DNA from: Eledone cirrhosa
Taxonomy: Eukaryota
Length of the DNA stretch: 64,000 nucleotides
Assembly (NCBI GenBank): GCA_964016885.1
Contig: OZ024742.1
Coordinates: 201,686,001-201,750,000 of the forward strand
Direction of reading: 5' to 3'
Part shown: in pieces, positions 25,855 to 26,190 of the stretch
Layout: every line of letters starts with the position of its first letter
How positions within the stretch are numbered: position 1 is the first letter of the stretch
Made by a program: the position numbers and the translations under genes
The notes under the pieces: model-generated
Databases searched by the model: none
Told to the model about the DNA's origin: nothing
Seen by the model: the letters and a program-made list of their open reading frames with translations, nothing else

Positions 25855-26190
25855 AAACCCAACACTGAGGAGGTCACAGAATGAGTGACGAAAGAGCTAT
25901 GACAATATATAAACAAGCTTCTGGTTATCAAACCAAACAACCAACCGGAAATTTATAATAAATTATACCCAGTCACCAAGGAGGTCACAGAATGGGTGAC
26001 GAAAGAGCTTTGACACTATATAAACAAGCTTCTGGTTATCAAACGAAACAACCAACCGGATATTTATAATAAATTAAACCCAGTCACCGAGGAGGTCACA
26101 GAATGGGTTACGAAAGCGCTTTGACAATATATAAACAAGCTTCTGGTTATCAAACTAAACAACCAACCGGAAATGTATATCAAATTAAAG
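25855..26190 (+). ncRNA. Tandem array of three 111-bp units, each carrying a minimal type I hammerhead (retrozyme-like)
   Basis: Cores at 25865 (CTGAGGA), 25976 (CCAAGGA) and 26087 (CCGAGGA). Consensus GTCA-CYGAGGA-G-GTCAC-AGAATGG-GTGAC-GAAA-GMGC-TW-TGAC. Confidence 0.8.

Follow-up and report, generated by a model that had tools for sequence, protein, structure and literature searches.

A probable Penelope end-piece, locally triplicated, carries three damaged minimal hammerheads in Eledone cirrhosa

Three tandem 111-bp repeats, every one of which bears a minimal type I hammerhead such as Penelope elements have, are confirmed as a real feature of a 64,000-nucleotide stretch of Eledone cirrhosa DNA (the window). 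The most likely reading, which we place at a probability of roughly 0.6, is an ordinary one. A short, non-coding end-piece of a Penelope-like element was inserted into (TA)n, its first 111 bases were duplicated twice in place after the insertion, and the copies then decayed. The original prediction had read the array as an independent retrozyme, and this is largely refuted by junction searches.

The tandem array

The array and its immediate surroundings comprise the following features.

25762-25855: (TA)n microsatellite, (TA)47 by TRF; left flank of the insertion and the usual target type of the parent family
25854..25964, + strand: copy 1; starts ~6 bp 5' of the hammerhead, at the start of the whole insertion
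25965..26075, + strand: copy 2; the genome has no second instance of its joint with copy 1
26076..26189, + strand: copy 3, from TRF and the sequence
26190..26275, + strand: run-on of the parent element's end, 3' of copy 3, to position +195
25861..25903, + strand: hammerhead 1; core intact, stem II of 5 pairs, stem I of only 2 pairs, predicted cut after 25899
25972..26014, + strand: hammerhead 2; U4C (25977) and G5A (25978)
26083..26125, + strand: hammerhead 3; U4C (26088), stem II mismatch (26109), GCGC loop (26117)

TRF reported 3.0 head-to-tail copies (25854-26189, period 111, 91% matches, no indels, score 553), in agreement with the three 111-bp units of the original prediction. Copy 3 extends a further 85 bp in parent-family sequence, to 26275, and from 26227 this contains the 17 codons at the start of the parent open reading frame (ORF). 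The run-on stops at +195, short of the +232 end of the family.

The region is rich in repeats and flanked by (TA)n, a setting in which an assembler might itself create a tandem, yet the copies differ from one another at 8-10 of 105 sites. Furthermore, a contig from a public run crosses the junction of copies 2 and 3 (25998-26138) with zero differences. The three runs compared represent one sample, as contigs, and since this may be the assembled sample the agreement is not independent. We regard an assembly artefact as extremely improbable.

Hammerhead motifs

The motif in each copy reads as had been described: a stem I strand, CUGANGA, an extra G, stem II, GAAA, a four-base loop, UH and a stem I strand, with the cores at 25865, 25976 and 26087. 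We used a descriptor for the minimal hammerhead, consisting of the core CUGANGA / GAAA / UH with stems I and II. With it, the intact family form was recovered from 38 fetched loci-strands, compared with no match in 100 shuffled windows, thus the motif is not due to chance. The descriptor was passed by none of the three window copies. Rfam produced no hammerhead match in 20000-32000, only repeat-driven noise, and none on one intact family copy either; the hammerhead call therefore rests on the descriptor and the literature.

The motifs probably belong, as originally proposed, to the dimer-acting minimal kind. This kind occurs in Penelope end repeats. The type I hammerheads that Cervera and De la Pena (2014, PMC4209133) describe for Penelope elements also have a stem I of four pairs and a long stem II. 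They likewise possess an extra base between positions 9 and 10.1, a G10.1-C11.1 pair and complementary 15.2-16.2, all of which are present in the array hammerheads. The described examples are mostly single copies from truncated elements, with some opposite-strand pairs, whereas the array holds three motifs at a spacing of 111 bp, none of them undamaged.

The original prediction assigned a separate lesion to each copy, which holds for stem I of copy 1 and for the core of copy 2, where G5A is a change that serves as the inactive control in PMC4075628. The core change of copy 3, U4C, is one that hammerheads tolerate (PMC4075628), and the worse defect of this copy, which the original prediction did not mention, is a C-U mismatch in stem II. 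This stem has six pairs in the family and five in the array. Its energy is -4.4 and -4.3 kcal/mol in copies 1 and 2 and -6.4 in one intact family copy, while in copy 3 it is predicted not to fold (+2.1 kcal/mol). The palindromic GCGC loop noted earlier is present in copy 3, but it does not stand as a selected feature. It is private to that copy (0/70 family copies), the family having GAGC, and at the distinguishing site 67 of the 70 copies have A and 3 have G.

Variable sites make up 6/41 positions inside the hammerhead and 7/64 outside it. The copies decay without sparing the ribozyme, and the hammerhead is under no constraint. Variation within the family is also mostly decay; in one copy, L056, a change in a stem I pair is compensated, which is too little for a test of covariation. 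L019 and L022 represent a sister subfamily of this hammerhead, where loop III is GGAC or GAAC, the site is UA and G15.2-C16.2 is kept, and which would suit such a test.

The parent element

A genome search with copies 2 and 3 gave 1,409 candidates. Intact hammerheads are present across the genome: the 43-base sequence has 225 exact matches, compared with 0 for the control. Other copies of the unit continue into common sequence on both sides. Upstream of one of them lies a decayed reverse transcriptase (RT), followed by a GIY-YIG endonuclease with a CX4CxxC linker and C..C..H..H (Pfam RVT_1, E 0.001; GIY-YIG, E 0.0005-0.005; all below curated cut-offs). We scored 40 RT-endonuclease relatives, which are 83-89% alike, and fetched 11 other loci, 8 of which align into the unit without a break. 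The minimal hammerhead sits in the end repeat of this RT-endonuclease element. The full copy L118 carries the end repeat, the hammerhead and then a reading frame that begins near +148 and stays open for 116 codons. The RT-endonuclease copies that run into the unit, the L118 frame and the run-on of copy 3 together identify the 111-mer, by alignment, as the hammerhead and 5' leader of this dispersed Penelope-like element.

The order of the domains and their motifs mark the parent as a Neptune/Nematis-type element: the RT is followed by a C-terminal GIY-YIG with CCHH and a CX2-5CxxC linker, as described for such elements by Craig et al. (2021, PMC8557442). The same account reports (TA)n targets, 5' truncation, inverted 5' copies and two 3' ends, and the parent shares each of these. 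The two 3' ends are ~61 bp apart in the parent, compared with 30-40 in the published elements.

The insertion ends were mapped for 81 copies. The 3' ends cluster at ~+171 (31 in the 170-179 bin) and at +232 (25 in the 230-239 bin), and these clustered ends mostly run into (TA)n; ends near +105 are rare (2/81). The main class of 5' ends lies between -41 and -70 (40/81), and a minor class lies near the hammerhead (9/81 between -20 and -1), with ends near -5 to -18. An inverted second copy is present at 18/67 loci. These family samples were picked by likeness to the window or to the intact hammerhead, and are thus not random. The end positions and inverted copies are the usual insertion pattern of the Penelope class. 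The pile-up of 5' ends 41-70 bp before the hammerhead, and not at the cut site, may mark the RNA start. It also suggests that uncut RNA is the template, as is reported for PAc, the Poseidon element of Anolis (PMC11167929). PAc further resembles the parent in that its hammerhead is situated where the end repeat meets the ORF, and in having genomic ends inside the ORF start. It belongs to another clade, and its ORF starts in stem II, whereas that of the parent starts ~148 bp after the hammerhead start. The papers searched contain no description of the locus or of the parent family, and repeat libraries and supplements may already list such families.

The neighbouring element

Directly 3' of the run-on lies a second Penelope-like element with the following features.

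26276..31600, + strand: Hydra-clade Penelope-like element, unrelated to the unit
26276-26971 and 30880-31600, + strand: its end repeats, 96% alike
26963-28276, + strand: RT frame with RT motifs
28213-29433, + strand: endonuclease frame, GIY-YIG, downstream of the RT
26785-26830 and 31414-31459, + strand: its own minimal hammerheads, both intact and both passing the descriptor

The original prediction was right in placing a Penelope-like element here, but not in calling it Naiad-like. Naiad elements carry the endonuclease N-terminal to the RT and are without a canonical hammerhead, whereas in the neighbour the RT precedes the endonuclease and the element has hammerheads of its own. Its motifs, domain order and hammerhead match the Hydra clade: the translations contain RWR, DKT and CxCX5C linker motifs and a C-terminal endonuclease, and the description of this clade (PMC8557442) lists RW(R/K), DKT, a CxCX5C linker, a C-terminal endonuclease, a (TA)n flank and a hammerhead. 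The frame is broken near 28240. The two whole frames had no Pfam match at E 0.1, and the last 210 residues gave a weak GIY-YIG match.

The neighbour's family has at least 40 copies that are 95-99% alike. It is therefore younger than the parent family, at 83-89%, and for the same reason it may still be active in the genome. There is no DNA likeness between the neighbour and the parent family, and the unit stands beside 0/19 other copies of the neighbour's family among the fetched loci. We had also considered whether the array might belong to the 5' end of the neighbour, and rejected this on comparison with the neighbour's family. The supply of RT by the neighbour, which the original prediction invoked, finds no support in these comparisons, and the parent family encodes an RT of its own.

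A single-locus tandem and the retrozyme reading

The head-to-tail tandem exists at this locus only. Among the 40 scored of the 1,409 candidates, matches that extend beyond one unit occurred at this locus alone. A pattern for the junction had two exact matches in the genome, both within the array, and none with one mismatch; two mismatches gave 19 matches, compared with 10 for a control, and none of the 19 are family members. Hammerhead halves at a period of 92-122 were found at no locus other than the array. At a period of 123-312 there were no exact halves in the genome, a search by which mutated copies would be missed. A same-strand neighbour at 111 bp was present at 0/67 loci.

These searches bear on the proposal of an independent 111-nt retrozyme, which would spread via self-cleaved circles and rolling-circle reverse transcription using the RT of its neighbour. 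Penelope end repeats are the source of such elements, which may be equally short (10.64898/2026.07.22.740005). The three hammerhead units in tandem agree with this, as do the stem I kept in copies 2 and 3 and the tolerance of U4C. Against this, the junction occurs at no second locus, and a circle explains neither the 85-bp run-on into the parent ORF nor the first junction. The hammerhead lacks constraint, and the neighbour is both unrelated to the unit and younger. Moreover, the retrozymes treated in PMC7229834 have canonical hammerheads with loop contacts, and minimal ones belong there to Penelope elements. We consider an independent retrozyme very unlikely; the supposed monomer corresponds to an inner segment of the repeat that ends an autonomous element.

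Animal non-LTR retrozymes (Cervera and De la Pena 2020, PMC7229834; Li, Clavereau, Pollet 2026, 10.64898/2026.07.22.740005) are likewise short tandems with one type I hammerhead per unit and an origin in Penelope end repeats, and the array shares the head-to-tail arrangement of such units. Unlike the retrozymes in these accounts, it occurs at a single locus, has minimal, broken hammerheads and is known here from DNA alone. The preprint (10.64898/2026.07.22.740005) asks for two consecutive complete hammerheads, but 0/3 copies pass the descriptor, and the searches above revealed no dispersed family of tandems with a common junction. The same preprint reports retrozyme units of 51-972 bp, so that an unusually small unit, as first supposed, is not new, and it also describes how end repeats can give rise to tandem retrozymes. 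The array thus belongs with the minimal hammerheads of Penelope elements, does not work like any system active today, and is at most a stillborn example of this route. On the most likely reading, it offers a worked example of the step from end repeat to tandem by local amplification, and indicates that this step can follow insertion and lead nowhere.

Origin of the array

In a tree with 70 family copies, the three array copies group as a single clade (support 99/89, stem 0.033), within which copies 2 and 3 pair (100/72); this tree has 105 columns, and its bootstrap had not settled. By this tree, the copies are each other's closest relatives. Several changes seldom seen in the family, at 25, 58, 78 and 106, are common to the array copies, and the stem branch of the clade is as long as a terminal branch. 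Ageing as a single copy, or a private source, is therefore needed. We found no other copy with the shared changes within 1 mismatch over 43 bases, a search that excludes only a large subfamily, since we estimate that an exact 43-mer survives in ~1/20 copies at such divergence.

We propose that the parent's RT made the stub, as with many similar ones that end at ~+171 or +232 beside (TA)n, and that this single stub aged before two duplications took place. The first duplication would have arisen via the A/T-only likeness of the (TA)n flank and the unit end. AAA is common to both sides of the joint, at the A/T-only end of the unit and at its start beside (TA)n. Once two copies were present, slippage or unequal exchange involving both would have yielded the second duplication. 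The younger Hydra element then likely inserted at +195 of the older stub.

The start of the unit coincides with the start of the insertion, which also fits an RT jump at insertion, and for this reason a jump-back stands as the rival to duplication in place. Here the RT, at the template 5' end near -6, would have jumped to +105 on AAA and recopied the unit, and a second jump or later unequal exchange would have supplied the third copy. The minor class of 5' ends close to the hammerhead offers such a template end, and partial tandems are made by Penelope-like elements (PMC8557442), in which the RT is also reported to start inside the RNA (PMC11167929). However, a jump leaves the shared rare changes and the long stem branch to be accounted for by time as a single copy or by a private source. 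The scarcity of family 3' ends near +105 also argues against it, and DNA duplication is the simpler way to produce an identical joint a second time. Duplication in place has weaknesses of its own: gene conversion between neighbouring copies could mimic the shared changes, the tree is short, and the search for those changes elsewhere would miss a small source subfamily. On balance, we view the RT jump as possible but somewhat unlikely, and prefer duplication in place.

Cleavage by the array

In a double hammerhead, one copy supplies the core, stem II and the stem I 5' strand, and the other supplies the cut strand (PMC4209133, PMC6155905). The parent hammerhead would cut as such a dimer, via the imperfect palindrome A-G-A-G-C-U. 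In the array, copy 1 forms only 2 stem I pairs with any partner copy, and the perfect palindrome of copy 3 has no identical partner in cis. Since no pairing in the array unites an intact core, stem I and stem II, the natural array is predicted to have at best poor cleavage activity. An earlier view that all three cores are dead was dropped, U4C being tolerated, and on the same ground copy 3 is not proven dead. Forced double-hammerhead folds reached -8.0 and -8.5, compared with minimum-energy folds of -27.4 and -30.9, in a model that scores no hammerhead core; an intact family copy also folds otherwise than as a hammerhead, and we attach no weight to this comparison.

Published cleavage data give a context for these predictions. 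Intact motifs of the minimal Penelope kind cut weakly in vitro (PMC4209133), the PAc hammerhead needs its protein for cleavage (PMC11167929), and 8/9 frog dimers in the preprint's assays did not cut (10.64898/2026.07.22.740005). The array could also record a retrozyme caught at birth, in which two intact hammerheads, brought 111 nt apart by duplication, cut as a dimer independently of the remaining element and released a tiny circle before mutation silenced them without offspring. We think this improbable. If true, the circle would rank among the smallest that ribozymes of animal genomes release, and the core of copy 3 might retain the ability to cleave at the sites of copies 1 and 2, freeing a 111-nt RNA. 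Natural intact copies and a natural spacing are available to test dimer cleavage by an imperfect palindrome.

Other repeats in the window

An inverted pair, 74% alike, lies directly 5' of the (TA)n tract (25112-25259 and 25591-25719). Pieces of a further dispersed repeat are found beside (TA)n in both orientations (31692-31992, 24024-24401, 21907-22516 and 35063-35502). This repeat contains a CUGAUGA-like motif near 31889 and is possibly the end of a third Penelope family. An open frame at 38785-39459 with a weak RVT_1 match (E 0.00045, below the cut-off) represents another retroelement fragment. From 42710 to 63996 the window consists of a satellite of 39-bp units (~549 copies, 88% matches), which has long open frames on both strands. 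Finally, two tandem 152-bp units occupy 11076-11372. This short repeat also occurs in several of the fetched loci, and it may resemble a cephalopod SINE.
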